A stretch of DNA of 31,652 bases from Nitrospirota bacterium (GTDB lineage Bacteria > Nitrospirota > Thermodesulfovibrionia > Thermodesulfovibrionales > Dissulfurispiraceae), in the NCBI GenBank assembly GCA_013349595.1, contig DUZI01000001.1:1-31652 (forward strand). The letters run 5' to 3'. The notes under the pieces were generated by a model that ran no database searches, was not told the DNA's origin, and saw only the letters and a program-made list of their open reading frames with translations. Each line of letters opens with the position of its first letter. Position 1 is the stretch's first letter. Below, piece by piece: positions 2,237-19,271 of the stretch. A program made the position numbers and the translations under genes.

Positions 2237-2749
2237 TCATACCGATTCATTAATAATCAGACTTTTGTCATCAATAAAGGCCTTTGCCTCTAAGATAACT
2301 ATATTCCCCTTTGAAATACCTCTCACATATCCCTCTGGATAGGAACTTAGAGTTGGGATGTTTGTATCAATAGAATCTTCCTTTATTTTTTGGACTAATC
2401 CTATTTTATCAACTATAATAGAAGTTACAAACTCATCGCAAGAGATTATTATTAATTTACTTTTTTCATCATTATCTCTACAAGATATGCCAAAGATTAC
2501 TCTTAAATCAATAATAGGCAATATAAGCCCCCTATAATTAACTACACCAAAAAGAAAAGCTGGAGAAGATGGAACCTTAATGACATCATAAGTGACAAAA
2601 ACCTCCTTTATAAATTTTGTCTCAAAGGCATATCTTTCACCACAAAGGACAAAATCAAGCACCTCTATCTCCTTTCTACTGTCATCCTTTATTGTCCTTT
2701 CCCTGCTAATTAATTGTGCCCTCTTTCTTAATATGTCCTCTTTTTTCAT
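2237..2749 (-). CDS. cheW: CheW adaptor, with an N-terminal extension typical of ACF/Wsp-like systems
   Basis: ERYAFE, VPSSPAFLFGVVNYRGLILPIIDL; N-terminal ILRKRAQL helix. Confidence 0.9.
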   Translation of the reverse strand: MKKEDILRKRAQLISRERTIKDDSRKEIEVLDFVLCGERYAFETKFIKEVFVTYDVIKVPSSPAFLFGVVNYRGLILPIIDLRVIFGISCRDNDEKSKLIIISCDEFVTSIIVDKIGLVQKIKEDSIDTNIPTLSSYPEGYVRGISKGNIVILEAKAFIDDKSLIINESV

Positions 2750-4203
2750 TTAATCTTTATCTCCTTTATATGTGAATGAGATAATTCAAGTATCCTTCCT
2801 ACATTCATCTCTAAGTCTTCAATAACCTGTTCTTTGTCTGTCATGGCAAGAGAGTCAATAACATTTTGAAACTCCTTTAAAGCCTCTTCTTTTTTATGAG
2901 ACCTCAATAATAAATTAGCAAGTCTAAATCTTACAGAGACTAAATCATTTTTGATATATAAAACATTTCTCCAGGTCTCTAAAGCGCCCAGCAAATTACC
3001 ACTTTCTTCTAAGATAACAGCCTTTAAAAAGTAGGCTTTTAAATCAAGTTTGTTAATATTAATTGCCTTATTTAAAATTGCAAGGGCTTCATCTAAAAGC
3101 CCTGAGTTTGCCTTATCCTGTGCCTTTTTTAAGAGATTACTTAATAAACCATCCTTTTCTCCATTAGAAGACTCAACGGGAATGTTTTTTGTGTGGGTAC
3201 CCTTTGATTTTTTTGATACTCTCTCATATCTCTTTACTTCTTTAGTAATATCAACAGACTGATTAAGTTTATAAGATTTTAAATCAAACTGATCCAATAA
3301 ATTATCAATTTTATCTGAAGTAGTTGAATTAACTGATTTTGTATCTACTTTTAATAACTTGGGCTGTTTTTTAAAGACCACATAGCCATCAAAACTTATT
3401 GGATTTAGATATGAATTGCTATATGCCTGCATATCTACTGGTGATGTTATAAGCCATCCATTGACAAATAGTAGATTAGTGAGAAAATCCAACACCTTTG
3501 TCCTAAGTGCTTCGTTAAAATACATTATGACATTTCTACAAAAAATCACATCATAGAGGCATAATTTTTTTGACTGCCTATCACTTTCTGATGCAAGGTT
3601 AAATTGATAAAACTCAACAAACCTCTTTAATTTTGGAGAAATTTCATAGAGACCTTTCTTTATTTCTACAAAATGTTCCTTCTTTAACCACTCTGGTGCC
3701 CCCCTAAAAGACCATTCTTTATAAATGCCTGATTTGGCTTTATCAAGGGAAGCCGAATTAATATCGAAAGCCATGATTTTTATATCCCAACCTTTAAGGA
3801 TAGAGCTTAACTTGTCAATAATTATTGCAATAGAATATGGTTCCTCACCTGTAGAACAACCAGCACTTAGAATATTTATTTCTTTATGGGATAAATTTTT
3901 TTTGTCTCTGACTATCTCTGGAATTATATTATCTTGAAGTATCTGAAAGGATTTCATATCCCTCATGAAAAAGGTCTCTCCTACTGTTAGATATTGAGCT
4001 AATGTTGTCAAATCGTTTCTGTCAAGAGATCTTTCAGAGAGTAGAAGAAGAAGTCTGTCATAGTCCTTTATACCCTTTTCTTTCATGAAGGCCTTTAGTC
4101 TCTGCTCAAATTCTTTTATACGATTTTCTTGATAATAAAGACCTAATTGTTCATTAACTAAAGAGCTAAGCTTTAAAAGGACTTCTGTATTCACAATCGT
4201 CAA
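2746..4203 (-). CDS. cheR: CheR methyltransferase with C-terminal TPR region (WspC/FrzF-like)
   Basis: TVGETFFMRD, SAGCSTGEEPYS, DVIFCRNVIMYF; C-terminal TPR-like helices (AYFLKAVILEESG). Confidence 0.9.
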   Translation of the reverse strand: MTIVNTEVLLKLSSLVNEQLGLYYQENRIKEFEQRLKAFMKEKGIKDYDRLLLLLSERSLDRNDLTTLAQYLTVGETFFMRDMKSFQILQDNIIPEIVRDKKNLSHKEINILSAGCSTGEEPYSIAIIIDKLSSILKGWDIKIMAFDINSASLDKAKSGIYKEWSFRGAPEWLKKEHFVEIKKGLYEISPKLKRFVEFYQFNLASESDRQSKKLCLYDVIFCRNVIMYFNEALRTKVLDFLTNLLFVNGWLITSPVDMQAYSNSYLNPISFDGYVVFKKQPKLLKVDTKSVNSTTSDKIDNLLDQFDLKSYKLNQSVDITKEVKRYERVSKKSKGTHTKNIPVESSNGEKDGLLSNLLKKAQDKANSGLLDEALAILNKAININKLDLKAYFLKAVILEESGNLLGALETWRNVLYIKNDLVSVRFRLANLLLRSHKKEEALKEFQNVIDSLAMTDKEQVIEDLEMNVGRILELSHSHIKEIKIK

Positions 4204-4216
4204 TTTAGGACTTCAA

Positions 4217-6901
4217 CTACTGTCTTGACATCTCTCTTAGTATGTCTTCTAATCGCTTAAGTTCTTCACCATACTTTGCCCAATTACCCTGTCTCTGCAT
4301 CTCAATAGCCCTTTCAAAGCTCTTTAATGCCTCCCTTGAGAGATTAGTCCCTGCAGGGATCTTATCAGGTGCCTTTTTGTCATCAACCTTCACTGATTTT
4401 TTTGAACCAAAAAGTCTTTGAAGGGCACTTTCAAGGTTTTCTTCCATAACCACTTCATTTTCATATGAAACAATGACCCTTCTTAGTTCAGGCAAACCAA
4501 CTTTATCAGATGCAGAAAGATAAAGGGGTTGCACGTAAAGTAGTGATTTTTCAATAGGAATTACAAGGAGACTACCCCTTATAACTTGAGAACCCCTTTG
4601 CCCCCAGAGGGTGAGTTGTTGAGAAATGTAAGAGTCCTGATTTATCCTTGCATCAACCTGTTTGGGTCCATAGATAAGTCTGTCTCTTGGGAAGGTATAT
4701 ACTATAATCTTTCCATAATTTTCACCATCACACCTTGCAGCAAGCCATGCGGCTAAGTTATCCCTCTTTGCAGGGACATAAGGAAGCAACAAAATATATT
4801 CTTCTTTTTTGCCACCCGGCAATTTCATAATCGTGTAGTAAGGCTCCATAGGCTTATCTGCAAAGGTTGGTATCTCCCAGAGGTTTTCCTTGTTATAAAA
4901 AACCTTTGGGTCAGTCATGTGATAGGCTGAGAGCATCTGTGCCTGCACCTGTAACATCATCTGTGGGTATCTGATATGGCTTCTAAGATCATCAGGCATG
5001 TCTTTTAGTGATTTAAAGAGTTGAGGGAATATCTTTGAATAAACCCTTATAAGAGAATCACTATTGTCACTTATGTAAAATTTGACAGAGCCATTATAGG
5101 CATCAACAGTTGTCTTTACAGAGTTTCTGATATAGTTTATGTTTCTATTTATCAGCTTTGAATAGGGGAATCTGTCTGTAACTGTATAGGCATCAATAAT
5201 CCAGACAAGGTGTCCTTCCTTTGTAACAACGAGATAGGGGTCCTTATCAAAGATTAAAAAGGGTGCTAATTTTTTCACCCTTTGCGATATATTTCTGTTA
5301 TAGAGAATCCTACTCTCACTGGTAATATCTGTTGAAAGTAATATCTTCTCTGTGGCAAATCTTATAGAAAATAATACCCTTCTTAATATTGAATCAATGG
5401 GCACTCCACCTATCCCCTTGTAAGAGGTATAGACATTGTCAGTAGAAGTAGGATAACTAAACTCTGGCACCTTTGTTTTGACAATCACATAATCGTTTGA
5501 CATCTCACCATAATAAATCTCTGGCCTCGTCACCTTTATATCTGCTGTGCTTACAGGGGGTATGTCTTTGATGATAAATTCAGGTAATCCTTCTTTGCTG
5601 ATCCTGCTAACCGGTCCCATAGTAATGCCATTTCCATGAGTAAAAATAAGCCTTTCGTTAATCCATGACTTGCTTGGCAAGTCGTTATAAGACAACTCGC
5701 GTGGTGAAAGCATAACCTGAATATATTCACCATTGATGGTATATCTATCATTGTCAACATCGGCAAATCTGTAATAAGTCCTTATCTGCTGAAGCTGGCT
5801 ATAGGTTCTTAAAAGTGGCGAATGATCCCAGAGGCGAATGTTCTTAATAGTTGCCTCGTTTTTCTCAATGTCTCTTGCTGTAAGATTATAGTCCACATCA
5901 AAGGGAATAACCTCTATTCTGTCAAGGTCAAAACCCTTTCGGGTAAAGTTTATGCTGTGTTGAATATATGGCATCTCAAGGGCAAGTTCATTTGGAGAGA
6001 CCTTTAACTTTTGAAGCAACATGGGATAGGCTATCAATCCAGCAATATATATTACTGCGGTAACAAGAATTGGCATCATTGCAATCTTAAAAGCCCCTCT
6101 CAAAGCTGCCACAATAAATATGACCGCTGATATAGGTGTCATAAAAGCAAGTGCCCGAAGGGCTATAAGCCTTGCATTAATATCAGTATATCCTGCCCCA
6201 GAGACAACCGTTGATGTTGAATAAAGGAGTTTAAAGGAATTAATGTAAAAACCAAGACCTAATACGCAGATAAACATACCTGCAAGTATTAGGACATGGG
6301 TCTTGACTCTCTTATTTATCAAAAAGAATGTCCCTGTAAAAACTATACCACCCCTTAGAAGATAATTAATTGCAATGATTGCAAGGGTTGATAAAAATGT
6401 AAAACTAAGAAAACCCCTCAAGGAATCCATAAAGGATAATTCAAATAAATAAAAGCCAAGGTCTTTTTGAAATATTGGATCTAATGTCTTCATTTCAACA
6501 GTATTAATGAAAAGGAGCAACTCTTCCCATCTCAATGCACCCCATTGGCCTGTTAGTAATGTGATAATAATGATAACAATATAAGAAAGTGGCATAATTA
6601 ACTTCTCAAGGCCTTCAATTTTAATAGGCAACACCATCCCATCAATACTCAAAGAAGCCCTTTCAGGAAACTGTATAGTCCTTGCAATGAATAGATTAAA
6701 GAGGGCAAAAACGAGGAAAACAATACCAAAGATAAAACCAGACAAGGCTTTATATGAAAGAGTTTTTATAAATACATCCACATACCCTGTCTCTATAAAA
6801 AACAACCAGTCAGAATAAAAACCTGTGACTATTACAGCAATAATACTAAAGATGAATAATGCGACAAAAGTCATAGGTGAAAAAATTTTGTACTTCCTCA
6901 T
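4217..6901 (-). CDS. UPF0182 family membrane protein
   Basis: DWLFF..GY, DPIFQKDLGFYLF, NIRLWDH, RPEIYYGE, NYIRNSVK motifs; N-terminal TM segments. Confidence 0.92.
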   Translation of the reverse strand: MRKYKIFSPMTFVALFIFSIIAVIVTGFYSDWLFFIETGYVDVFIKTLSYKALSGFIFGIVFLVFALFNLFIARTIQFPERASLSIDGMVLPIKIEGLEKLIMPLSYIVIIIITLLTGQWGALRWEELLLFINTVEMKTLDPIFQKDLGFYLFELSFMDSLRGFLSFTFLSTLAIIAINYLLRGGIVFTGTFFLINKRVKTHVLILAGMFICVLGLGFYINSFKLLYSTSTVVSGAGYTDINARLIALRALAFMTPISAVIFIVAALRGAFKIAMMPILVTAVIYIAGLIAYPMLLQKLKVSPNELALEMPYIQHSINFTRKGFDLDRIEVIPFDVDYNLTARDIEKNEATIKNIRLWDHSPLLRTYSQLQQIRTYYRFADVDNDRYTINGEYIQVMLSPRELSYNDLPSKSWINERLIFTHGNGITMGPVSRISKEGLPEFIIKDIPPVSTADIKVTRPEIYYGEMSNDYVIVKTKVPEFSYPTSTDNVYTSYKGIGGVPIDSILRRVLFSIRFATEKILLSTDITSESRILYNRNISQRVKKLAPFLIFDKDPYLVVTKEGHLVWIIDAYTVTDRFPYSKLINRNINYIRNSVKTTVDAYNGSVKFYISDNSDSLIRVYSKIFPQLFKSLKDMPDDLRSHIRYPQMMLQVQAQMLSAYHMTDPKVFYNKENLWEIPTFADKPMEPYYTIMKLPGGKKEEYILLLPYVPAKRDNLAAWLAARCDGENYGKIIVYTFPRDRLIYGPKQVDARINQDSYISQQLTLWGQRGSQVIRGSLLVIPIEKSLLYVQPLYLSASDKVGLPELRRVIVSYENEVVMEENLESALQRLFGSKKSVKVDDKKAPDKIPAGTNLSREALKSFERAIEMQRQGNWAKYGEELKRLEDILREMSRQ

Positions 6902-7252: not shown

Positions 7253-8320
<1,068 letters not shown>

Positions 8321-9223
8321 TTATAACTTCCTATATACTGAGTTTGAGACCCTTGTATATGGCAAATTCATACCACTCATCGTCTCTGAATGACCAATGA
8401 ACAAAAAACCACCTTCTTTTAGACAATTATAAAATCTCATAAAAAGTCTCTCTTGAGTTTCTTTGTCAAAATATATAACGACATTCCTACAAAATATAAT
8501 ATCAAGGGGTTCACGAAAACAAAAGTCTGTATCCATAAAATTTAAAACCCTAAATCTTATCTTTGACCTTAATTCAGGCACAAATCTGACAAGTCCTCTC
8601 GACCTATCCTTGCTCTTTAGTAGATATTTTTTTCTCAAATCTATGGGTATTCCACCAATCTTATCATCCTCATATATACCTCTTTTGCCTATTTCAAGAA
8701 CCCTTTGAGATATATCTGAGGCAATAATAAGGAAATCAAAGCCCTTTCCCTGACACCTTTCTTTGAACTCATTTAAAACCATAGCAATCGTATAAGGCTC
8801 TTCGCCAGTAGAACACCCCGCACTCCATATGACAAAAGGCTCTTTAATACCGCTATGGTAATTTATTACCAAATCTGGCAACGCTGATCTTATTAAAAAG
8901 TCAAATTGTTCAGCCTCCCTAAAGAATTCAGTCTTGTGTGTCGTAACAAGATCAATCATGTGTATGAGTTCATCTTTCATCCCTTCAGGACTGAAAACAT
9001 AATCACAATAATCTGAAAACGAATTTAAATGAAGCGCCCTTACTCGCTTTTGTAACCTTGACTCCAGGAGCGTCTTCTTAGCAGGAGGCATCTTGACACC
9101 AAGATTTGACTCTATAAAATCGCTTAATCTTTTAAAGTCTTTTTCTGTAAGAGTATAACCTGTATAGAAAGATTTTGGAATATTATCATCAATATCAAGT
9201 TCTAATCCCTTTTTGACAGCCAT
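8321..9223 (-). CDS. cheR: CheR methyltransferase
   Basis: TTHKTEFFRE, WSAGCSTGEEPYT, DIIFCRNVVIYF. Confidence 0.96.
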   Translation of the reverse strand: MAVKKGLELDIDDNIPKSFYTGYTLTEKDFKRLSDFIESNLGVKMPPAKKTLLESRLQKRVRALHLNSFSDYCDYVFSPEGMKDELIHMIDLVTTHKTEFFREAEQFDFLIRSALPDLVINYHSGIKEPFVIWSAGCSTGEEPYTIAMVLNEFKERCQGKGFDFLIIASDISQRVLEIGKRGIYEDDKIGGIPIDLRKKYLLKSKDRSRGLVRFVPELRSKIRFRVLNFMDTDFCFREPLDIIFCRNVVIYFDKETQERLFMRFYNCLKEGGFLFIGHSETMSGMNLPYTRVSNSVYRKL

Positions 9224-9816
9224 TATCTATTATTTATACCTTTCCAAATTAGAGGAATTGACAAGGCAAACAAGGTAATCTTAATCAAATCCCCCACCAC
9301 AAAGGGATAAAATCCCAACTGCAAAAGGGATTCCCTACCCACATAAATAGATAAAACCGATAATCCAAAAATATAAATGACCAAATTGCCAGCTAATATT
9401 GACATAACTGCCTTTAATGGATTTCTATCCCAACCCCTTTGGGCAAAATAACCCACAATATAGGCTGCAGGTACAAATCCAATTATATATCCACCTGTTG
9501 GACCTAATAAATGATGGAACCCTCCCTTAAATCCAGCAAATACAGGGAGCCCCATTACGGCTTCGATTATATAAAAAATCGCACTTAAGGCGCCTCTTTT
9601 GGCACCAAGCATAGTGCCTACAACCAACACCCCTAAGGTTTGTCCTGTAATAGGAACTGGAGTAAATGGTAAAGGTATGGCGATTTGCGCCGAAAGGGCA
9701 ATCAACATACTACCTAAAAAAGCAATGATAATGTGATTATATGATTCCCTTCCTTTGATAATAAAATCAACTAAAACTGGTCTTAAGACAACGGTGTTCA
9801 TTTTGTTCCTCCTCAT
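9223..9816 (-). CDS. bioY: BioY biotin transporter (ECF S-component); start may be the second Met
   Basis: PVPITGQT, GLPVFAG..GG, GPTGGYIIGF, PFVVGDLIK. Confidence 0.93.
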   Translation of the reverse strand: MRRNKMNTVVLRPVLVDFIIKGRESYNHIIIAFLGSMLIALSAQIAIPLPFTPVPITGQTLGVLVVGTMLGAKRGALSAIFYIIEAVMGLPVFAGFKGGFHHLLGPTGGYIIGFVPAAYIVGYFAQRGWDRNPLKAVMSILAGNLVIYIFGLSVLSIYVGRESLLQLGFYPFVVGDLIKITLFALSIPLIWKGINNR

Positions 9817-9899: not shown

Positions 9900-10394
9900 C
9901 TATTGAGCCTCTGTGCTTTGTTTTATTACTGCCATATCCTCTTCTGCAAAAACCTTATCAATATCAAGTATAATGATAAATTGGTTATCTCCCTTTTTGC
10001 CCATTGCCTTTATAAATTCTGTATTTAGCCTTGTTCCTATTCTCGGTGCAGGCTCAAGATGGTCTGGCTCTATGTCAAGAACCTCTTGCACTGAATCAGC
10101 CAAAGCCCCTATAACTGTTGTCTCTCCTTCAAATAACACCTCTACTATAATTATGCAAGTATTCACAGTTCTTTCGGTCTTTGACATTCCAAACTTAAGT
10201 TTAATATCAACCACAGGCACCACACTACCCCTTAAGTTTATAACACCCCTCATAAACTCTGGTGTCTTCGGCACCTTTGTGATATTTGTATAATCTAATA
10301 CTTCTCTTATCTTGTTTATATCTACTGCAAAAATCTCATCTTCTAACTTAAATGTTAAGTATTGCGTTGTCTCCGTTATCCCTGCTACTGCCAT
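9900..10394 (-). CDS. cheW: CheW adaptor
   Basis: QYLTFKL, ITKVPKTPEFMRGVINLRGSVVPVVD. Confidence 0.96.
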   Translation of the reverse strand: MAVAGITETTQYLTFKLEDEIFAVDINKIREVLDYTNITKVPKTPEFMRGVINLRGSVVPVVDIKLKFGMSKTERTVNTCIIIVEVLFEGETTVIGALADSVQEVLDIEPDHLEPAPRIGTRLNTEFIKAMGKKGDNQFIIILDIDKVFAEEDMAVIKQSTEAQ

Positions 10395-10609: not shown

Positions 10610-12694
10610 CTAATACTTCTCAAATTCTCTATCTTCAGCATCGCCCTTGTCTTCACCCAGATTTATAATAGTACCTTTCGTTTTTACATCTGTCTTTTTA
10701 ACAACAGGTGTCCTGTTTGGTGTATTGTGGGTTATCTGCTCTAATCTTCCTGTTAATGTCTTCTGCCTCTTCACCCTTGCTCCCCTGCCTCCACCTGTCA
10801 CACTATCATCAAGCCTGAAAAACCCTATGCTGTCCTGTAACTGCTCCGCCTGTGATGACAACTCTTCTGCAGTTGATGCAAGTTCCTCTGCTGCCCCAGC
10901 ATTCTGCTGTACTACCTGATCTAATTGCTGTATTGCCCTATTTATCTGTTCTGCACCAGCCTTCTGCTCGTTGCTTGCACTGCTTATCTCCTGTACTAAT
11001 TCAGCGGTCTTTTGAATGTCTGGGACTAACTTCTTAAGCATCTCACCTGCCCTTTCAGCAACCTGTGTGCTTGTGGCAGAGAGTTGACTTATCTCACCTG
11101 CAGCAGCTTGTGACCTCTCTGCAAGCTTTCTAACCTCTGATGCAACAACTGCAAAGCCCTTACCATGTTCACCTGCTCGAGCTGCCTCAATTGCTGCGTT
11201 AAGTGCCAATAGATTTGTCTGCCTTGCTATCTCTTCAATTATACTTATCTTTCCTGCAATCTCTTTCATGGCACTGACAGCCTCATTAACCGCCTGTCCG
11301 CTCTCTTTTGCATCCTCCGCAGCCTTTAAGGCAATCTTTTCTGTCTGTAAGGCATTATCAGCGTTTTGTTTAATGTTACTACTCATCTGCTCCATTGATG
11401 ATGATGTCTCTTCTACTGATGCAGCCTGCTCAGTTGCACCTTGAGATATAGTCTGAGCGCTACTATTTAATTCATTACTACCTGTTGCTACATTGTCCGC
11501 TGCAGTCTTTACCTCTCCAACGATTTCCCTTATCTTCTTAACCATATCCATCAAAGATCTGATTAGCTCATCATCTCCTGACCTTTCCTTTAAATCAATC
11601 ATTAGATTTCCATTTGCAACCTCTTTTGCACCATCTATTATCTTCTTAGTTGCATCAATTAAAAAGTTCAGATTATTTTTAATTGTATTAAAATCACCTG
11701 CATATTCTTTCGTAATAGTTGGCGGCATAATACCCTTACTTATCTTATCAACATAATCAGCGGCAACATTTAGAGGTCCAATCACAGCATCAAGGGTGTC
11801 ATTTACTCCTTTGACTACATTATAAAACTCTCCATGATGTTTAGATGCATCTGCCCTTGTTGCAAGTCTGCCCTCAACAGCCGCCTTAGCTAACATATTT
11901 GCATCAGCTACAAGTGCATTAATTGCACCCACCATCTGTTTCATCTCTGCCATTAATTGCCCTGTCTCATCCTTTCTGCTGTCATCAAGGGTTACATTCA
12001 TATTACCAGATGCAATCTGCTTTGCAGCATCCATACACTCGCTAATTGGTTTTTTAATGCTCCTTACAATCCAGAAGGCAAAACCTATAGCAAGTAATAT
12101 AGAAATAACTGCAATTATGATAATAAAATTTATTGTTGTACGATAAAGTTCTTCTGCCTTTTTGCCTTCTTCTTGCATGAGTTTGGTTTGATAGTCTATT
12201 AAATCAACGACTCTCTTAAAGTATTCTGTCTGCACTGACCTAAGCTTACCTAATAGCAATGTTGTAGCTTCTTTGTTTTTATGTTGTAATGCAAGAGATG
12301 CAGCCTCTCTTTGTAAAGGTATAAACTGAGCCCTTATCTCTTCAATGGCAGCAAGTCTTTTTTTATCTTCTTCAGAATGAATAGTCTTTTTTAGTTTTTC
12401 AAGTCTATCAACAATAATACTTCTTGCATCCTCAATTCTCTTCTCCTCAGCCTTCATCTCACTTTCACTATCAACCAATACCATGTTTCTCATAGCCCTT
12501 GCGATAATATTTAGATTATCAATAATATCATTTGCCCAGACGACCTTTGGAAATCTGTCATTGACAATTTTGTCAATGGTCTCTCCAATATTAGCAAGCC
12601 TTGTTACTGCAAGTAGTGAGATAATGACCAGTGATAATATCACTAAACCAAAACCAAGCCCTAACCTCGTACCAATCTTCATGTTCTTAAACAT
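10610..12694 (-). CDS. Methyl-accepting chemotaxis protein (four-helix sensor, HAMPs, probably 34H class) with C-terminal pentapeptide EFEKY
   Basis: Two TMs, HAMP repeats, [27 protein letters not shown] tip, [15 protein letters not shown], terminal F-x-x-Y tether motif. Confidence 0.95.
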
Positions 12695-12720
12695 ATTGCC
12701 TCCTTATTACTTTAGATTAA

Positions 12721-13306
12721 TTAATGAAATACCTGTAATCTATTCTTACCACTTACAAGTCTAAACGATTCCAGCAACACCTCCTTAACATTTTCGATTA
12801 ATGGTTTGTCATGACCTGAATAAATTACCTTTAAATTTAAATTATCCAAAAACTCACAAAAGACTTCATCATAAGTAACATCTTGACTTAAGCCCCTTAT
12901 GGGTGTGTCTCCACTAAATAACACACCTTCGCTCTTACATAAAGACAGATTGAATCACTTGAATGAACAGGGCAATGAATAACCTCAAAATACCTGTCAC
13001 CAACTCTTATACTTTGACCATTTTTTAGTATTTCATCAATACCTTGAGCCTCCACATAAGCAAATACAGTGGGATTATATCTCTGCTTGATAGCCATCAA
13101 TCCACCTGTGTGATCAAAAGTATCACTTGATCTATTCTCTTTTTGCCTACGCCTGTGTTTATCTGCTCTATCTCTTCAATTATTGTGTCATCAGTGCCCA
13201 CATCTATTAGTGTGTTCACATCGTCAAGGGTATTCCAATCTCCAAGTATGAGATAAGGATTAGCTGAATATATCTTCTTGCTCTTGTTTAGACATATGAT
13301 CCTCAT
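12721..13306 (-). pseudogene. MBL-fold metallo-hydrolase pseudogene (two frameshifts)
   Basis: Three consecutive ORF fragments join into LIDVGT...VIL/FDHTGGL...HCPVHSSDSICLY/EGVLFSGDTP; the THxH part of the HxHxDH motif is missing at the first break (~13115) and the second break is at ~12930. Confidence 0.85.
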
Positions 13307-13332
13307 TTTTTGCTATTTAAATCCTCTTTTTA

Positions 13333-13930
13333 TCATCGTCTCCTAAATACTTGTCCCTCACCTGAAACCTGTTCAAAGAGGTGAGAGAGTTCAGGGGGTA
13401 TCTTTTGGGTCTGCTCTGTGGCAAATATACCACCTGTTACAAAAGATTTTTGAAACATCTTTATGACCTCCACCCTTTCAAGTCGTTGTAAATGAAGAGG
13501 GACATTTTTACATATTATCAGATTAAAATTAAAGTTATTGCTTATGGGTTGAAAGCTTAAGAGGTCATGCTTTTGATAAATTGTCCTCTCTCTTATGGCA
13601 TCAATTACCTTGTAATAGCCATTTCTTTGAGAAGGTGCAAAATACTTATCAAAGATCTCCCTATCTACTCTTTCAAGGTCTTCTCTTTTGTATTCCCCAG
13701 ACTTTACTATATCACCAAAGTCTGGGCTTTCCTCCTTATCGGTTGCGTAAATTATTTTTGTAACCAAAATAACCGAGTTTTTCAGCTAATACAATTGCAA
13801 TCGTATATGTCTCCTGCCCCATTGCACAACCGGCATCCCAAATCTTTAGAGAACCCTTAAAATCTTGTAATAGATACTTTACGGCTAAATCTATGACCTG
13901 AATATCTCTAAAGAAATATGTAAATGCCAA
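13333..13930 (-). pseudogene. Short CheR-like methyltransferase (catalytic domain only), frameshifted
   Basis: FTYFFRD, IWDAGCAMGQETYTIA in one frame; IYATD...LIICKNV in another; break near 13755-13765; TTG start with GAGG upstream. Confidence 0.85.
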
Positions 13931-14298
13931 TTAGGCCTCAACAAAGGATTTGTTCTTTATTTCCAATTCCCAGTCAGATATATGTGCTATCAAAATTTAT
14001 CCCCGATAAAAATACCTTTTTATGCCTATAAGTCAAATGACAGTCCTTTTGATTAATCTGCTTAAGCGCTATCTCTTCATAAGGATTATAAACTTTTCCA
14101 TCTCTTACTAAAAACCTGTGTTATAATCTCTTACCTTACATCTTCATAGGTCATTTTGTTCACTTTTGAAAAATGTAATCTCCTAAATCTATATCAAATT
14201 CCCCATCAGTGATACCAAAAGTCTGCATATTCTTGAATCATGGTAATGTCTTTATTTAACTCTGAAAAGATGCCTGCTCTTGAAAACCTACTAACCAT
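13931..14298 (-). pseudogene. Possible heavily degraded gene remnant
   Basis: ATG 6 nt after the cheA stop; protein-like segments in changing frames (e.g. LVRDGKVYNPYEEIALKQ, ILIAHISDWELEIK); last stop abuts the next start codon. Confidence 0.3.
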
Positions 14299-14304
14299 AG
14301 ATTG

Positions 14305-16479
14305 CTATTTTTTGCCTAATTCTTCCTTCTCAAAGGAATGAACCAAGTGTGGCACATCTATGATTAACGCCACTGTGCCATCACCAAGAATAGTGGCACC
14401 TGAAATGCCTTCAATCTGCCTAAATATCTTGCTGAGCGACTTGATTACTGCCTGAACCTCCCCAAAGAGTTCATCCACAATAAGTCCTGTCTTATTTCCA
14501 CCATATTGAACTATTACGATGTTTTCAAACTTTAAATCAATCTTCCTTTCATTGAAGAAGTCTCTTAACCTTATAAACGGTAATACCTCACCCCTTAAAT
14601 TAATATATTTCTTGGTGAGGGCTTCATTTCTTGCAGAATCAGAAAGCTCAACACACTCAACTATCATATCAAGAGGTATTACATACCTTGAATCACCTAC
14701 ACCAACCATAAATCCATCAATAATTGCCAATGTAAGTGGTAATCTTATCTGGACTGTAGTCCCCTTGCCCTCTTGACTCTTCATACCAACATTGCCGCGA
14801 AGTGCCTCAATATTCTTTCTTACTACATCCATGCCCACACCCCTGCCTGAGAACTTTGTGACCTTCTCAGCAGTAGAAAAACCAGGCTCAAAGACAAGGC
14901 GAAATATCTCACTTTCAGAGAGATTTACCCCTTGGGTGATTAATCCCCTATCAATGGCCTTCTGTAAAATCTTATCCTTTGCAAGCCCCTTGCCGTCATC
15001 AACAACCTCTATTACAATACTCCCTGCGTCATGGTAAGCATTGAGCAATATGGTGCCACGCCTTGGTTTTCCTATAGATTCTCTTACTTCTGGGATTTCG
15101 ATTCCATGGTCAGCAGCATTTCTAACAAGATGCATTAAAGGGTCACCAATCTTTTCTATGACAGTCTTGTCCAGCTCTGTATCACCACCATTTATGACCA
15201 AATCAATCTCCTTGCCAAAATCTTTGCTGATATCCCTGACAATCCTGTTAAATTTATTAAAAGTTTCTGCTATAGGCACCATCCTGATGGTCATTGCATT
15301 GTCCCTGATGTCTTCAACAAGTCGAGACATTACAGATACAGACTCAAAAAGACCTGAATCTTTAATCCTATTTGAATGTTGGGCTACATTTGCATAGGCA
15401 ATGACCAATTCACCAACCGTATTGATGAGCATATCAAGCTTGTTTGCATCAATCTTAAGTGTGCTTGCCTCATGAGACTTTACCTCAATAGCCTTCTTTT
15501 GTTTCTCAACGGCAGCGGAGACTACCTCAGGATGAACCATCCTTTCCTTGACAAGGATCTCACCTAAGGGGACTAACTTATGTGCCTCTTTGTCCTCCGA
15601 CCTTGACTGTAATTTTAAAGCCTCTTCGAGTTCTGCCTCTGTGAGTGCACCTCCTTTAACAAGTAATTCACCAAGCCTTAAAGGGTCTTCAGGCAGGTTA
15701 TTTATAAATTTTACATAATCTTCAATTTTGCTATGAGGTGGTAATATATGTATATCACAATCTTCACGAACAAACTCAAAGACATCTTCGATATCCTTTT
15801 TTAAAAAATCACACTTAAAGTCAATCTCAAAACCAAGATAACAACTCTCAGGGTCAATCTCACTTATCATAGGAATCTTCTCTGTAAGGGTAGTGATATA
15901 GATAATCTCTCCCATTCTCGTCAAATAATTGATAAAAGATAGAGGATCCATCCCACTTCTTAAGACATCCTTGCCAAACCGAAGTGATATATGCCATGTA
16001 TCAGCACCAATGCATTGTAATTGCTGTGTAGGCAAATCGGCTTTGTCATCTACTTGAGTTATTTCTATTGGCTTTTCTTGTGGTTTTAAGCCAAGATACC
16101 TTTCAAGCTGAACTGTAAGAACCTTTTCAAACTCTATAGATGAAGGACCTGTCTCACTCCTTTCGGGTAGTTCAATGAGTGATGTGATATGGTCTCTACA
16201 TTTAAGCAGCAAATCAATGAGTTCATTATCAATCTTTAACTCTCCCTGCCTTACCTTTTCAAGGACACTCTCTACCTTGTGGGTGAATTTTTCAACCATG
16301 TCAAGTCCAATGATACCTGCTGAACCTTTTATAGTGTGAGCTGCCCTAAAGAGTGCATTAATCGTTGCTTCATCTTGAGGATTACCCTCAAGCACTAAAA
16401 GGGCACTTTCCATCTCCTGAAGTGAATCTGCACTTTCAGAAATAAAAACCTTACGGGTTATATCAAGATCAAGATCCAT
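14305..16479 (-). CDS. cheA: CheA histidine kinase with an MshEN-like insertion
   Basis: Hpt FRAAHTIKG, HLVRNAADHG, DDGKG, GFSTA...SGRGVGMDVV, C-terminal CheW-like P5 domain. Confidence 0.97.
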   Translation of the reverse strand: MDLDLDITRKVFISESADSLQEMESALLVLEGNPQDEATINALFRAAHTIKGSAGIIGLDMVEKFTHKVESVLEKVRQGELKIDNELIDLLLKCRDHITSLIELPERSETGPSSIEFEKVLTVQLERYLGLKPQEKPIEITQVDDKADLPTQQLQCIGADTWHISLRFGKDVLRSGMDPLSFINYLTRMGEIIYITTLTEKIPMISEIDPESCYLGFEIDFKCDFLKKDIEDVFEFVREDCDIHILPPHSKIEDYVKFINNLPEDPLRLGELLVKGGALTEAELEEALKLQSRSEDKEAHKLVPLGEILVKERMVHPEVVSAAVEKQKKAIEVKSHEASTLKIDANKLDMLINTVGELVIAYANVAQHSNRIKDSGLFESVSVMSRLVEDIRDNAMTIRMVPIAETFNKFNRIVRDISKDFGKEIDLVINGGDTELDKTVIEKIGDPLMHLVRNAADHGIEIPEVRESIGKPRRGTILLNAYHDAGSIVIEVVDDGKGLAKDKILQKAIDRGLITQGVNLSESEIFRLVFEPGFSTAEKVTKFSGRGVGMDVVRKNIEALRGNVGMKSQEGKGTTVQIRLPLTLAIIDGFMVGVGDSRYVIPLDMIVECVELSDSARNEALTKKYINLRGEVLPFIRLRDFFNERKIDLKFENIVIVQYGGNKTGLIVDELFGEVQAVIKSLSKIFRQIEGISGATILGDGTVALIIDVPHLVHSFEKEELGKK

Positions 16480-16790
16480 TAGTTTCCTCCTCCATGAGGC
16501 AATAAATATTCTGAAACCCTATATAATTCCATCAAGGTATTGACAGCGTCACTTTTATCTTTGATAACAAAGCCCTTGCCTTCGGACTCGCATTGTTTCT
16601 TAAGTGCTACAATAATCTGAAAACCTGATGAGTCAATCTCCGATACCATTGACAAATCAATCTCTAAAGTTGAAAGACTAAATATATCAGGATTTTTAAG
16701 AGAATTAGTAATCTCTTGGGCATTAAATATATTCATCTCTCCATCTATAGTTACTATCACCTTGTCAGATTTTTTTTCAATTTGAACCAT
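16479..16790 (-). CDS. STAS domain protein
   Basis: IDGEMNIF...IDLSMVSEIDSSGFQ; TAATG overlap with cheA. Confidence 0.9.
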   Translation of the reverse strand: MVQIEKKSDKVIVTIDGEMNIFNAQEITNSLKNPDIFSLSTLEIDLSMVSEIDSSGFQIIVALKKQCESEGKGFVIKDKSDAVNTLMELYRVSEYLLPHGGGN

Positions 16791-16793
16791 CAG

Positions 16794-17270
16794 TTAACCT
16801 TCCTTTTGTATTTGATTATCTAAAAAAAGCAAAAATTCTTTTAATTCAATTATAAAATCATTTGTAACCTGCCTGTGTTTTTTAATTAAGAAATCAATCT
16901 TGTCTTTCTTCAACTCAAAGCCATAGATATTTCTAAAGAGATGCCTAAAAGAGAGATAATCATAAAGTTGTCCTGCTAAACTGTTAGATATTAAGGCAGG
17001 TCGAATCCCATCAATATTAATAGTCATTTTATAAAGAAGCGCCTTATGCCATCTATCAGACTCATCAAGAGAACCATTCATTTCAAAGGCGACCTTTTTA
17101 AAAATCCTTTCACAGCAATTATAAAAATCATGTAAGATTGAACCTTTACTCCTTAAATACACAGGGGTATTTTTTGACTTTATGGCACCTAATTCATCGG
17201 AGAGCCTTTCAAGGTTTTCCAACTCTTTTACAATCTCAGCCTTTAATGTCAATAATATTATTCTATCCAA
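16794..17270 (-). CDS. HEPN (HepT-like) ribonuclease toxin candidate
   Basis: LHDFYNCCERIF, WHKALL, FRHLFRNIYG; directly downstream of an MNT gene. Confidence 0.8.
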   Translation of the reverse strand: MDRIILLTLKAEIVKELENLERLSDELGAIKSKNTPVYLRSKGSILHDFYNCCERIFKKVAFEMNGSLDESDRWHKALLYKMTINIDGIRPALISNSLAGQLYDYLSFRHLFRNIYGFELKKDKIDFLIKKHRQVTNDFIIELKEFLLFLDNQIQKEG

Positions 17271-17583
17271 TCCTTACACCCCTTGTGATTACATAGTCCT
17301 TAAAATCATTAGTAAGGTCTTCAAAGGGTTTTAAATCTATCTGAAAATCACTCTCCCTGATTAACAAGGCATAGGCTTTAAAGAAATCCTCTGCACTCAA
17401 GCCTTTTATGACCAAGTCAATATCTGAATGTCTGTGAAAACCCTCTTTTAATATTGAGCCACATAGATATAATTCATCAAAGACAAAGCTATCTTTTAAG
17501 AGGGATACAAGCCTGTCAATACCTTTTATAGCCCTTTGTCTATGGGCTTGACGCCTTTCTCTTATAACAGAGAGCAGAGACAT
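17263..17583 (-). CDS. Minimal nucleotidyltransferase (MNT/MntA-like antitoxin)
   Basis: GS...SDIDLVI and a third Asp in IDL; 106 aa; overlaps the HEPN start. Confidence 0.85.
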   Translation of the reverse strand: MSLLSVIRERRQAHRQRAIKGIDRLVSLLKDSFVFDELYLCGSILKEGFHRHSDIDLVIKGLSAEDFFKAYALLIRESDFQIDLKPFEDLTNDFKDYVITRGVRIG

Positions 17584-17587
17584 TGTT

Positions 17588-17956
17588 TTAAGGTAATATT
17601 AGCTTTTCAATTGCTGAAAGCATCTGCTCAGGCTTGAAAGGCTTTACTACCCATGCCTTTGCACCTGCTGCCCTACCTTCCTGTTTCTTTGCCTCTTGAG
17701 ATTCTGTGGTGAGCATTATTACTGGTGTGAACTTATAGTTAGGTTTGTTTTTAAGCTCTTTTAAGAAGGTTATACCATCCATATTTGGCATGTTAACATC
17801 ACAAATTATAAGATTTACCTTTTGACCTGTGAGCTTATATAGTGCATCTTTTCCATCAGTTGCCTCAATAACATCATAACCTGCTTTTTTTAATGTTACA
17901 GATACTACTTGTCTTAATGTTGCAGAATCATCAATTATCATAATTGTCTTTGCCAT
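17588..17956 (-). CDS. cheY: CheY single-domain response regulator
   Basis: IIDDS, ICDVNMP, MLTTES, VVKPF. Confidence 0.93.
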   Translation of the reverse strand: MAKTIMIIDDSATLRQVVSVTLKKAGYDVIEATDGKDALYKLTGQKVNLIICDVNMPNMDGITFLKELKNKPNYKFTPVIMLTTESQEAKKQEGRAAGAKAWVVKPFKPEQMLSAIEKLILP

Positions 17957-17969
17957 CTTATCCCCTTAT

Positions 17970-19271
17970 TTAAAAAAACTCAATATTATCAGAAGACTTC
18001 TTTGCCTTGCCACCTTTTTCAACTATTCTATCGTTTATAACTGAGTCATGTATGTCCCTTTGTTTCTGCATTACATAGTGTTTTATTATCTCATTTACAT
18101 CAAAATCAGGTATTTTGCATTTGTCAGGACAATAATCAGTTACAGTTATGCACTCCTTCAGTTGTTTCAAATAATTATTAATCCCCTCAAGGCATTTGAT
18201 CACCTGCTCTATCTGTTGTCTTGTTATGTCCTGGAATTGGACATTTGCAAGCATATTTAAGATCTTTGAAGAGACCTCTTCAGCACTTTCACCAACCTGT
18301 TGGAATATCTGTTCATTTAAGTGATTTAACAGCCTGTAACTATCTGCAAGGGCTGTCAACTGCATCTCAAGTCTTCTTAAAATGCCCTCCTCTTCTTTAT
18401 GCATCTGTTCGTCTAATTTCTCGGCAAACTGCTTTTCTATGCTCTTTGCCATCTTGATAATTGCGTGACCAACTTGTGATGCTGCATTTTCAGACTGCAT
18501 AGAGAGCTTTCTCACCTCATCTGCCACTACTGCAAAGCCCCTCCCCTGTTCACCTGCTCTTGCTGCCTCAATTGCTGCATTAAGGGCAAGTAGGTTTGTC
18601 TGATCAGAGATGTCTTTGAGTAATTGCACAAGTTTTGTCATAGAATCTGCATCTTGCTTGAGTAAATTTACGATATTTTTATCTTTTTCGAGTTCCTCAA
18701 TCCTTTTGTTTATATAACCCCTTAATTCATTAATAGCTGTTTCATTATGGTCCATCGTAAGGTGTGTCTCTTTAGCAAATTCTTCACTATGAACCTTTAA
18801 ATCATTAAGCCTCCTAATCAACTCATTCATACTTGTGTCAACTGATTGGGCATTGTTGATAACACCTACCGCAGCATCGTCTGTCTCTGCAACAACATTA
18901 AGAAGGTGAGCCTTTGTTAATTCATTTGTTTCATTCAGAGACTTGCAAAAGGATATACATTTATCTCGTCTTGTTTTTATTGTAGCGGAGTTGTTAAATA
19001 AATGCTTAATAAAACCCTTTTGATTAGTAGATATTCTTCTAAAATACCATCTCCAAAAAAAAACTGAATATGAAAAAACTGTTATTGCTGTGAGAGATAC
19101 TATTAGAATATGCTTGATAGATGTATTAGGTTTATCAAAGATAAAACTGATGAAACTATCAATAAATTCATCAGTAATTATCGCAAACAACGCTGTTACT
19201 GCAATTACTGCAAAAAAAAGTATCAAATAAAGTTTCTTATATTTATCTAAATCAGCTAAAACTGTTTGCAT
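17970..19271 (-). CDS. MCP-like protein with a short signalling domain and a CheZ-like C-terminal motif
   Basis: Two N-terminal TMs, [33 protein letters not shown] tip, QFQDITRQQ motif, terminal DNIEFF. Confidence 0.85.

Follow-up and report, generated by a model that had tools for sequence, protein, structure and literature searches.

Contig DUZI01000001.1 of a Nitrospirota bacterium carries a cluster of chemotaxis genes, which we analyzed over the whole stretch of 31,652 nt (the window, to which coordinates refer unless another contig or locus is named). Among these genes, directly upstream of cheY, lies an open reading frame (ORF) for a protein of 433 residues that is related to methyl-accepting chemotaxis proteins (MCPs) and has, on the returning helix of its signaling hairpin, a sequence resembling the active site of CheZ (Table 1).

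A 433-residue MCP-like protein

Two segments near the N-terminus are predicted to span the membrane. They are only ~17 residues apart, leaving no periplasmic sensor domain, and a Pfam scan of the protein revealed neither a sensor input domain nor a HAMP domain. The MCP signaling domain is clearly recognized (PF00015, residues 197–330, 103.2 bits versus a cut-off of 34.6, E = 1.8e-29), and the residues of its tip are those that are invariant in the family, bearing out an initial report of a hairpin tip ahead of the CheZ-like motif. In an AlphaFold2 model of the monomer (mean predicted local distance difference test score, pLDDT, 76.8), the protein forms a single long helical hairpin: the outgoing helix ends at residue 238, the tip lies at 239, and the returning helix extends to residue 377. 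The chain continues past this bundle with a three-cysteine loop, a pair of short helices, and a disordered tail (residues 417–433). The CheZ-like motif begins a 13-residue stretch (residues 345–357, nt 18201–18239) that had been placed at 18202–18239 in the preliminary description, and the terminus DNIEFF had likewise been read correctly. The methylation consensus [EQ][EQ]xxA[ST] was not found in the protein by a regular-expression scan; the pattern is strict, and atypical sites are possible.

Like the pentapeptide receptors (NWETF type), which tether CheR and CheB, the protein has a flexible C-terminal tail that ends in an aromatic residue. However, NIEFF does not conform to the pentapeptide pattern x-[HFYW]-x2-[HFYW], as it has Ile at position 2, where the pattern needs an aromatic residue. 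A role of the tail as a CheR/CheB tether was dropped on this basis.

Table 1. Features of the 433-residue protein, genes of the window, and CheW-CheZ fusions
Feature	Coordinates	Strand	Basis or remark
Gene for MCP-like protein with CheZ-like site, 433 residues	17970-19271	-	ORF; Pfam MCPsignal and sub-threshold CheZ; thousands of homologs
Predicted membrane helix 1, residues ~14-36	19164-19232	-	Hydropathy scan; AlphaFold2 helix 2-44
Predicted membrane helix 2, residues ~54-73	19053-19112	-	Hydropathy scan; AlphaFold2 model
N-arm resembling CheZ N-helix, residues 121-161	18789-18911	-	hhalign; T130 invariant, A133 and A134 nearly so
MCP signaling hairpin, Pfam residues 197-330, tip at 239	18282-18683	-	Pfam; invariant tip consensus; fold matches
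C-arm resembling CheZ active-site helix, residues 321-372	18156-18311	-	Pfam, NCBIfam and profile alignments
QFQDITRQQ, residues 345-353	18213-18239	-	D348/Q352 aligned to CheZ D143/Q147 (1KMI chain Z); invariant
Cys triad C374, C381, C385, post-bundle loop	18117-18152	-	Kept in part of family (54/197)
YxMxxQxxxH motif, residues 399-408	18048-18077	-	Y399, M401, Q404, H408 invariant; 182/197 members
Acidic-aromatic terminus DNIEFF, residues 428-433	17973-17990	-	Ends disordered tail (pLDDT <50, residues 417-433)
cheY, 122-residue single-domain response regulator, proposed substrate	17588-17956	-	Pfam; starts 13 nt past stop codon
Nucleotidyltransferase (Polbeta/NTP_transf_2) and HepT-like pair, between cheY and STAS gene	16794-17583	-	Pfam
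STAS-domain protein	16479-16790	-	Pfam; conserved neighbor
cheA (Hpt, dimerization, ATPase, CheW-like)	14305-16479	-	Pfam; one of two in genome
4HB-HAMP MCP	10610-12694	-	Pfam
cheW	9900-10394	-	Pfam
bioY, between cheW and cheR	9223-9816	-	Pfam
cheR	8321-9223	-	Pfam
cheB	7253-8320	-	Pfam
UPF0182 gene, separating cheB from a further CheR-TPR and CheW pair	4217-6901	-	
CheR-TPR and CheW pair	2237-4203		
CheW-CheZ fusion, piece on contig C116	820-1830	+	End of contig
CheW-CheZ fusion, piece on contig C96	1498-1806	-	End of contig
Intact 395-residue CheW-CheZ, complete genome of same family, after its cheA (locus L119)	3110-4297	-	CheZ 124 bits

Resemblance to CheZ

Both CheZ and the HisKA_3 sensor phosphatases catalyze by means of an Asp-x3-Gln (DxxxQ) motif carried on a helical bundle. 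Judged from five independent lines of sequence comparison, the similarity of the 433-residue protein to CheZ is specific, though remote. A profile made from the C-terminal domains of 43 family members (the C-domain profile) aligned with E. coli CheZ (1KMI residues 108–163) without gaps (E = 0.094), with D348 opposite D143 and Q352 opposite Q147. Agreement extends to the hydrophobic positions and to the flanking F, Q and T, the register being counted along the printed alignment. Compared with Pfam, 35 of the 43 C-terminal domains matched CheZ at E ≤ 0.01 (best 1.1e-6), while the runner-up family was matched by 3. In the reverse direction, a search of 61 whole Vibrio genomes, translated in six frames, with the C-domain profile retrieved an ORF of 240–275 residues in ~50 of them (E ~1e-5 to 1e-6 per genome), and the one such ORF that was checked is canonical CheZ (Pfam, 257 bits). 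A profile was needed for this, because single-sequence searches failed: BLASTP with the C-terminal domain produced no match among the ORFs of the 80 loci fetched, and a search of five gammaproteobacterial genomes gave three weak matches (E ~0.1), one of which lies inside a canonical CheZ gene.

The motif itself is uncommon. In a six-frame translation of the 1.93-Mb genome, [FY]QD[ILVM][TS]xQ occurs, among ORFs of at least 80 residues, only in this protein and in canonical CheZ; the ~10 other MCPs of the genome have no such sequence. A chance origin of the motif was rejected on the grounds of this rarity and of its invariance in the family.

The likeness involves both arms of the hairpin. With hhalign, the N-arm aligned to the N-helix of CheZ with a P value of 0.0011, compared to 0.34–0.51 for reversed controls and 0.025 for the N-arms of generic MCPs. 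When the tip is set at residue 239, the offsets of both arm alignments predict a hairpin turn at residue 125 of Vibrio CheZ, and in the AlphaFold2 model of Vibrio CheZ the turn is at residues 121–125. This agreement suggests that the two CheZ-like segments lie opposite each other, as their counterparts do in CheZ. The stretch between them, ~145 residues, is the MCP tip module.

Conservation within a known receptor family

Homologs were found in 3777 representative clusters at E ≤ 1e-3 and in 877 at 1e-10, and the family ranges over Nitrospirota, 'Deltaproteobacteria', and Beta- and Gammaproteobacteria. The nearest homologs (60–77% identical) come from Thermodesulfovibrionales (Nitrospirota) assemblies. 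Precomputed Pfam tables put PF04344, the CheZ family, on some members and PF28017 on a few; a look-up in the ESM Atlas returned only unnamed fragment clusters. As had been supposed at the outset, the family is not new. The gene belongs to a known but functionally unexplained family of receptors, which includes those of the VC1394 type and the McpA-like receptors. The further expectation that relatives would occur in F7 and F8 clusters was correct insofar as McpA-like receptors are encoded beside F7 clusters, but the closest relatives also include VC1394-type receptors of F9 clusters, and the association does not extend to F7/F8 clusters in general.

Conservation was counted over 197 full-length relatives. 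The preliminary description had regarded a loss of DxxxQ among homologs as evidence against phosphatase activity; QFxDxxxQ is present in every one of the 197, in 191 of them as FQD. The Asp sits 108 residues past the Gly of the tip in 173 of the 182 sequences measured, and the tip residues are invariant as well. The protein ends in LF, FF or YF in 191/197. A second motif, Y[VT][MT]xxQxxxH, is shared by 182 members and is missing from both aligned McpA-type sequences. Directly after the CheZ-like helix, a Cys-x6-Cys-x3-Cys triad (residues 374–385) is kept in the Nitrospirota and delta members and absent in the beta and gamma members; through it, the module could receive a metal or redox input.

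A few longer members (P0188, P0193, P0203 and P0231) have an additional N-terminal sCache_2, PAS, or PilZ and PAS region, which suggests that the module is under sensor control in some organisms. Another genome of the same order encodes a protein of 601 residues (locus L120, 1767–3572, − strand), with no obvious membrane anchor, in which IQFHDITRQQ lies upstream of a degenerate MCP tip; its terminus is DNIELF, and it matches Pfam CheZ with 27.8 bits. Several genomes of the order encode similar ORFs of 600–750 residues, with two stretches that resemble CheZ.

Gene neighborhood and the adjacent CheY

The stop codon of the receptor gene is separated from the start of cheY by 13 nt, confirming the position directly upstream of cheY noted earlier. 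The nucleotidyltransferase/HepT-like pair that follows cheY is absent at this position in the nine related loci examined and is thus outside the conserved layout. Genes for CheY and a STAS protein stand beside the family gene, followed by cheA where the fetched DNA extends so far, in a Thermodesulfovibrionales metagenome-assembled genome (MAG), one further NCBI/Logan assembly, Azonexus, Ectopseudomonas composti, and four Vibrio genomes. In the Azonexus locus the CheY gene is upstream of the receptor gene, whereas in most others it is directly downstream. In Sterolibacterium and a gammaproteobacterial MAG, too, a gene for a CheY ortholog lies just 3′ of the matched MCP-like gene. The 80 loci retrieved by means of a generic MCP tip pattern contained mostly unrelated MCPs, with L031, L067, L069 and L091 being informative.

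CheY proteins encoded beside family members (121–127 residues) are 61–85% identical to the window CheY across phyla (48% in Azonexus), as compared to ~35% for unrelated CheYs in the loci. They keep an Asn two positions after the phospho-acceptor Asp and a Glu two positions after the conserved Thr. The CheY of E. coli, the substrate of CheZ, has the same pair. The window CheY is unusually conserved, with 72–77% identity to its counterparts in Beta- and Gammaproteobacteria.

A gene encoding a protein with receiver (REC), SpoIIE and HATPase_c_2 domains lies near family members in Vibrio (L113, 2775–4442, − strand) and in the Thermodesulfovibrionales MAG (L114, 4293–6008, − strand). These genes, taken with the STAS genes, suggest that the pathways have a partner-switching output. 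The window itself contains no REC-SpoIIE gene. Between cheA and the 4HB-HAMP MCP gene (12700–14300, − strand) we found out-of-frame pieces, among them a CheR-like methyltransferase split at ~13736–13785 and, as judged by eye, parts resembling a metallo-beta-lactamase-type hydrolase; these fragments are either pseudogenes or assembly errors.

A canonical CheZ elsewhere in the genome

The cluster had been said to lack cheZ, cheC and cheX. This holds for the cluster, as no CheZ, CheC or CheX family member was present among the window ORFs scanned, but not for the cell. The genome assembly (344 contigs, 92% complete) encodes FliM and has two cheA genes, and beside the second of these is a canonical CheZ with an N-terminal CheW domain. 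Its gene is split over two contig ends, with an overlap of ~41 codons. The C-domain profile also matched ORFs of ~390–415 residues in several genomes of the order, and these probably represent the same CheW-CheZ fusion. A borderline CheC/CheX-like ORF is also present, on contig C24.

Proposed function and alternatives

We lean slightly toward the interpretation that the 433-residue protein is a CheZ-type phosphatase that docks in the array and acts on the adjacent CheY, with its site built into a chemoreceptor scaffold. The protein would dimerize to form a four-helix bundle, with its tip docked into the CheA/CheW baseplate of the cluster's array; the intact MCP tip is in keeping with such docking. 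The flexible acidic-aromatic tail would capture CheY-P, the product of the next gene, as CheZ does with its C-terminal peptide. Q352 would then position the attacking water while D348 contacts the active site of CheY, accelerating dephosphorylation and terminating the signal at the place where CheY-P is made. More speculatively, receptor conformation, or an N-terminal Cache or PAS sensor in some relatives, may modulate this activity. A receptor-embedded CheZ-type phosphatase appears to be a new proposal for these proteins; the literature covered, which lay outside subscription journals, yielded nothing that connects CheZ with McpA-like, 24H or VC1394 receptors.

The idea of a receptor-phosphatase chimera came from the preliminary description, and several of the results above speak for it, namely the invariance of DxxxQ, the reciprocal and in-register profile matches, the conserved adjacency to CheY, and the intact tip. 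On these sequence-based grounds, both CheY binding and catalysis are to be regarded as putative. A predicted complex of two cytoplasmic domains with the adjacent CheY, a comparison also envisaged there, lends weak support: the interface score (ipSAE, interaction prediction score from aligned errors) was 0.45, compared to 0.25 for the best control, with at least 89% of contacts shared between runs and a partner pLDDT of at least 84. Of 80 solved complexes, 58 reached the ipSAE mark, as did 2 of 110 mismatched pairs; at values of 0.60 or below, only 7 of the 80 reached it, along with both of the passing mismatches. One caveat here is that a CheY-CheZ complex has already been solved, and hence the score may reflect likeness only.

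The weakness of this prediction is one of a number of points that weigh against a receptor-embedded phosphatase. Every match to a CheZ model falls under the curated cut-off: Pfam CheZ (PF04344) matched residues 261–371 with 25.2 bits (E = 1.7e-5; cut-off 30.7), and NCBIfam Phos_CheZ matched with 26 bits (E = 5.6e-6; cut-off 350). The likeness spans only ~50–70 residues per arm. For the C-arm, the hhalign P value was 0.0015 and that of reversed controls already 0.007, making profile-profile evidence on helical sequence weak. Save for its acidic residues and terminal Phe, the tail is unlike CheZ's C-terminal peptide. Fold searches with the AlphaFold2 monomer (Foldseek against PDB; VIA-align) gave MCP cytoplasmic domains and generic long hairpins or coiled coils, with CheZ absent among the matches listed. 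Because the query is a 290-residue hairpin, these searches are uninformative for the interpretation, and structure does not discriminate.

Other points concern the need for such an activity and the behavior of relatives. With a canonical CheW-CheZ and a CheC/CheX-like ORF in the genome, a phosphatase is not otherwise missing, and the argument from need is weakened accordingly. No phosphatase phenotype is described in publications on relatives. McpA-like receptors are reported in F6 arrays, with which McpA co-clusters; F7 arrays stay intact when McpA-like receptors are deleted; and overproduction of McpA boosts swimming as does that of other MCPs. With regard to the F7 CheY, the supplement of PMC7184735 mentions 'the rapid auto-dephosphorylation', which would lessen the need for a phosphatase.

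The main alternative, which we consider unlikely but by no means far-fetched, is that the protein is a short (24H-type) chemoreceptor or array scaffold of the ordinary kind. Here the C-arm motif, YxMxxQxxxH and the tail would serve packing or the binding of other partners (STAS, CheA, CheD, CheB, CheR), and the likeness to CheZ would stem from common helical-bundle ancestry or convergence. Indeed, residues 90–382 superimpose on full-length MCP hairpins (2CH7, Z 13.9; 3ZX6, Z 13.0), the N-arms of generic MCPs are themselves faintly like the CheZ N-helix, and some relatives bear Cache or PAS sensors, as true receptors do. P. aeruginosa McpA/CttP is a reported chemotaxis transducer, and Shewanella McpA complexes with CheA3. 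In two Vibrio McpA-type loci, moreover, CheD is encoded two genes from the receptor (L113, 7063–7710, − strand; L112, 7254–7997, − strand) and ends in DDDVELF, the VELF terminus being that of the McpA-like receptor; this hints at a docking partner that the two may have in common. However, packing leaves unexplained why the CheZ catalytic pair and the flanking F, Q and T are invariant at a fixed distance from the tip, why the genome's other MCPs lack the motif, and why the C-domain profile retrieves CheZ from whole genomes. A plain receptor also sits poorly with the lack of a methylation consensus and with a tail that departs from the tether pattern; the tail of P. aeruginosa McpA is reported to bind none of four CheRs.

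We regard as improbable a protein that binds CheY or CheY-P without catalysis, either as a docking site like the P2 domain of CheA or as a sink that tunes phosphotransfer. The retention of the gene beside a highly constrained CheY, the predicted complex, and a disordered tail with a terminal aromatic residue, which is typical of CheY-binding peptides, would all be accounted for in this way. But binding alone needs no invariant Asp-x3-Gln in register with the catalytic residues of CheZ, and in CheZ itself the C-terminal peptide and the D/Q helix serve binding and catalysis jointly.

It is equally doubtful that a CheZ-type phosphatase encoded here acts on a different receiver domain, that of CheB or of a REC-SpoIIE-HATPase_c_2 partner-switching protein, since a CheY gene lies beside the receptor gene in every examined locus of the window protein's subfamily and the window has no REC-SpoIIE gene; such a substrate is plausible for the McpA-type branch. 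Speaking for this alternative, the McpA-type locus scanned (L113) adjoins cheB and the REC-SpoIIE-HATPase_c_2 gene rather than cheY, with an equally long gene at that position in L112; a gene of this architecture lies near a family member in L114; and the genome has several SpoIIE genes.

Comparison with known systems

In both the 433-residue protein and CheZ (E. coli 1KMI; PF04344), FQD-hydrophobic-T-x-Q sits on the returning arm of a helical hairpin, and their layouts run parallel: a bundle, then a linker, then a C-terminal peptide whose last residue is Phe (in CheZ, a disordered linker and a C-terminal helix). The gene adjoins cheY in this case, too. The receptor differs from CheZ in being anchored in the membrane and in having the MCP signaling tip in place of the hairpin turn. 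The tail also differs (x-I/V-E/T-F/L-F in the receptor family), and the family has in addition the YxMxxQxxxH motif and, in part, the Cys triad.

The CheW-CheZ fusion of this genome and its order has a phosphatase module for CheY that is joined covalently to an array component and encoded near cheA, as is the putative module described here. The fusion contains a full, above-threshold CheZ, whereas in the 433-residue protein a sub-threshold core is embedded in a receptor. As canonical CheZ is fused to CheW, tethering of a phosphatase to the array would appear twice in one genome.

Among described receptors, the VC1394 type (V. cholerae cluster I/F9) is similar in build and in gene order. The Vibrio protein, of 390–404 residues, has a pair of membrane helices and an MCP tip, contains QFQDRxxQ, and has FF at the end of its tail. 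The Vibrio loci (identified at the genus level, V. cholerae itself being unconfirmed) have the order receptor, CheY (122–127 residues), STAS, and the start of an ORF at the position of cheA, which is the order of the window apart from the toxin-antitoxin-like insertion there between cheY and the STAS gene. According to a review, VC1394 is one of the 24H receptors, has a transmembrane region, and is a protein of which 'little is known'; the published CheA of the cluster I/F9 locus is VC1397. The window order (MCP-like, CheY, STAS, CheA) fits the published placement of VC1394 and VC1397 in terms of gene order.

Vibrio genomes contain a second, more distant member. In this VCA1088 arrangement, the receptor gene is near cheB, cheD, cheR, aer2 and the REC-SpoIIE-HATPase_c_2 gene rather than cheY. 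These McpA-type sequences conserve QFxDxxxQ and the terminal Phe and end in VELF; they differ from the window protein in lacking YxMxxQxxxH and in having a variable residue in the middle of the motif (QFAD, QFSD). The F7-associated McpA-like receptors (PA0180/CttP, VCA1088, SO_2117) share a transmembrane anchor without a sensor, and their heptad class is unassignable or 24H. Ortega et al. (PMC7184735) found the terminus [DET][IVL][ED]LF to be kept in 40 McpA-like receptors, including PA0180 and SO_2117, could assign no heptad class to them, and called the role of the conserved C-terminus unclear. Betaproteobacterial members of the family examined here share the McpA-like terminus. The 433-residue protein itself has the features of this class of receptors, with an anchor but no sensor, a short MCP module, and the terminus x-[IVL]-[EDT]-[LF]-F.

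Whether all short transmembrane orphan receptors of F7- and F9-type systems (PA0180/CttP, VC1394, VCA1088 and SO_2117) are receptor-embedded CheZ-type phosphatases is a bolder question, to which we would tentatively answer no, though by no great measure. Many Proteobacteria, the model pathogens P. aeruginosa and V. cholerae among them, have conserved McpA-like and VC1394-type receptors. If the proposal were true of the whole class, these receptors would be CheZ-like four-helix bundles in which the hairpin turn is an MCP tip, and a CheZ-like site with a CheY-capturing tail would account for both the unassignable heptad class and the conserved C-terminus. A corollary would be a common origin of free CheZ and these receptors. 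Kinase control and phosphatase would then reside in one array, and the sensor-bearing relatives would be ligand-regulated phosphatases. F7- and F9-type pathways have no cheZ of their own, and the receptors would supply their missing signal-termination step. They would thereby represent a third route to an array-placed phosphatase, besides the binding of CheZ to CheA-short and its fusion to CheW.

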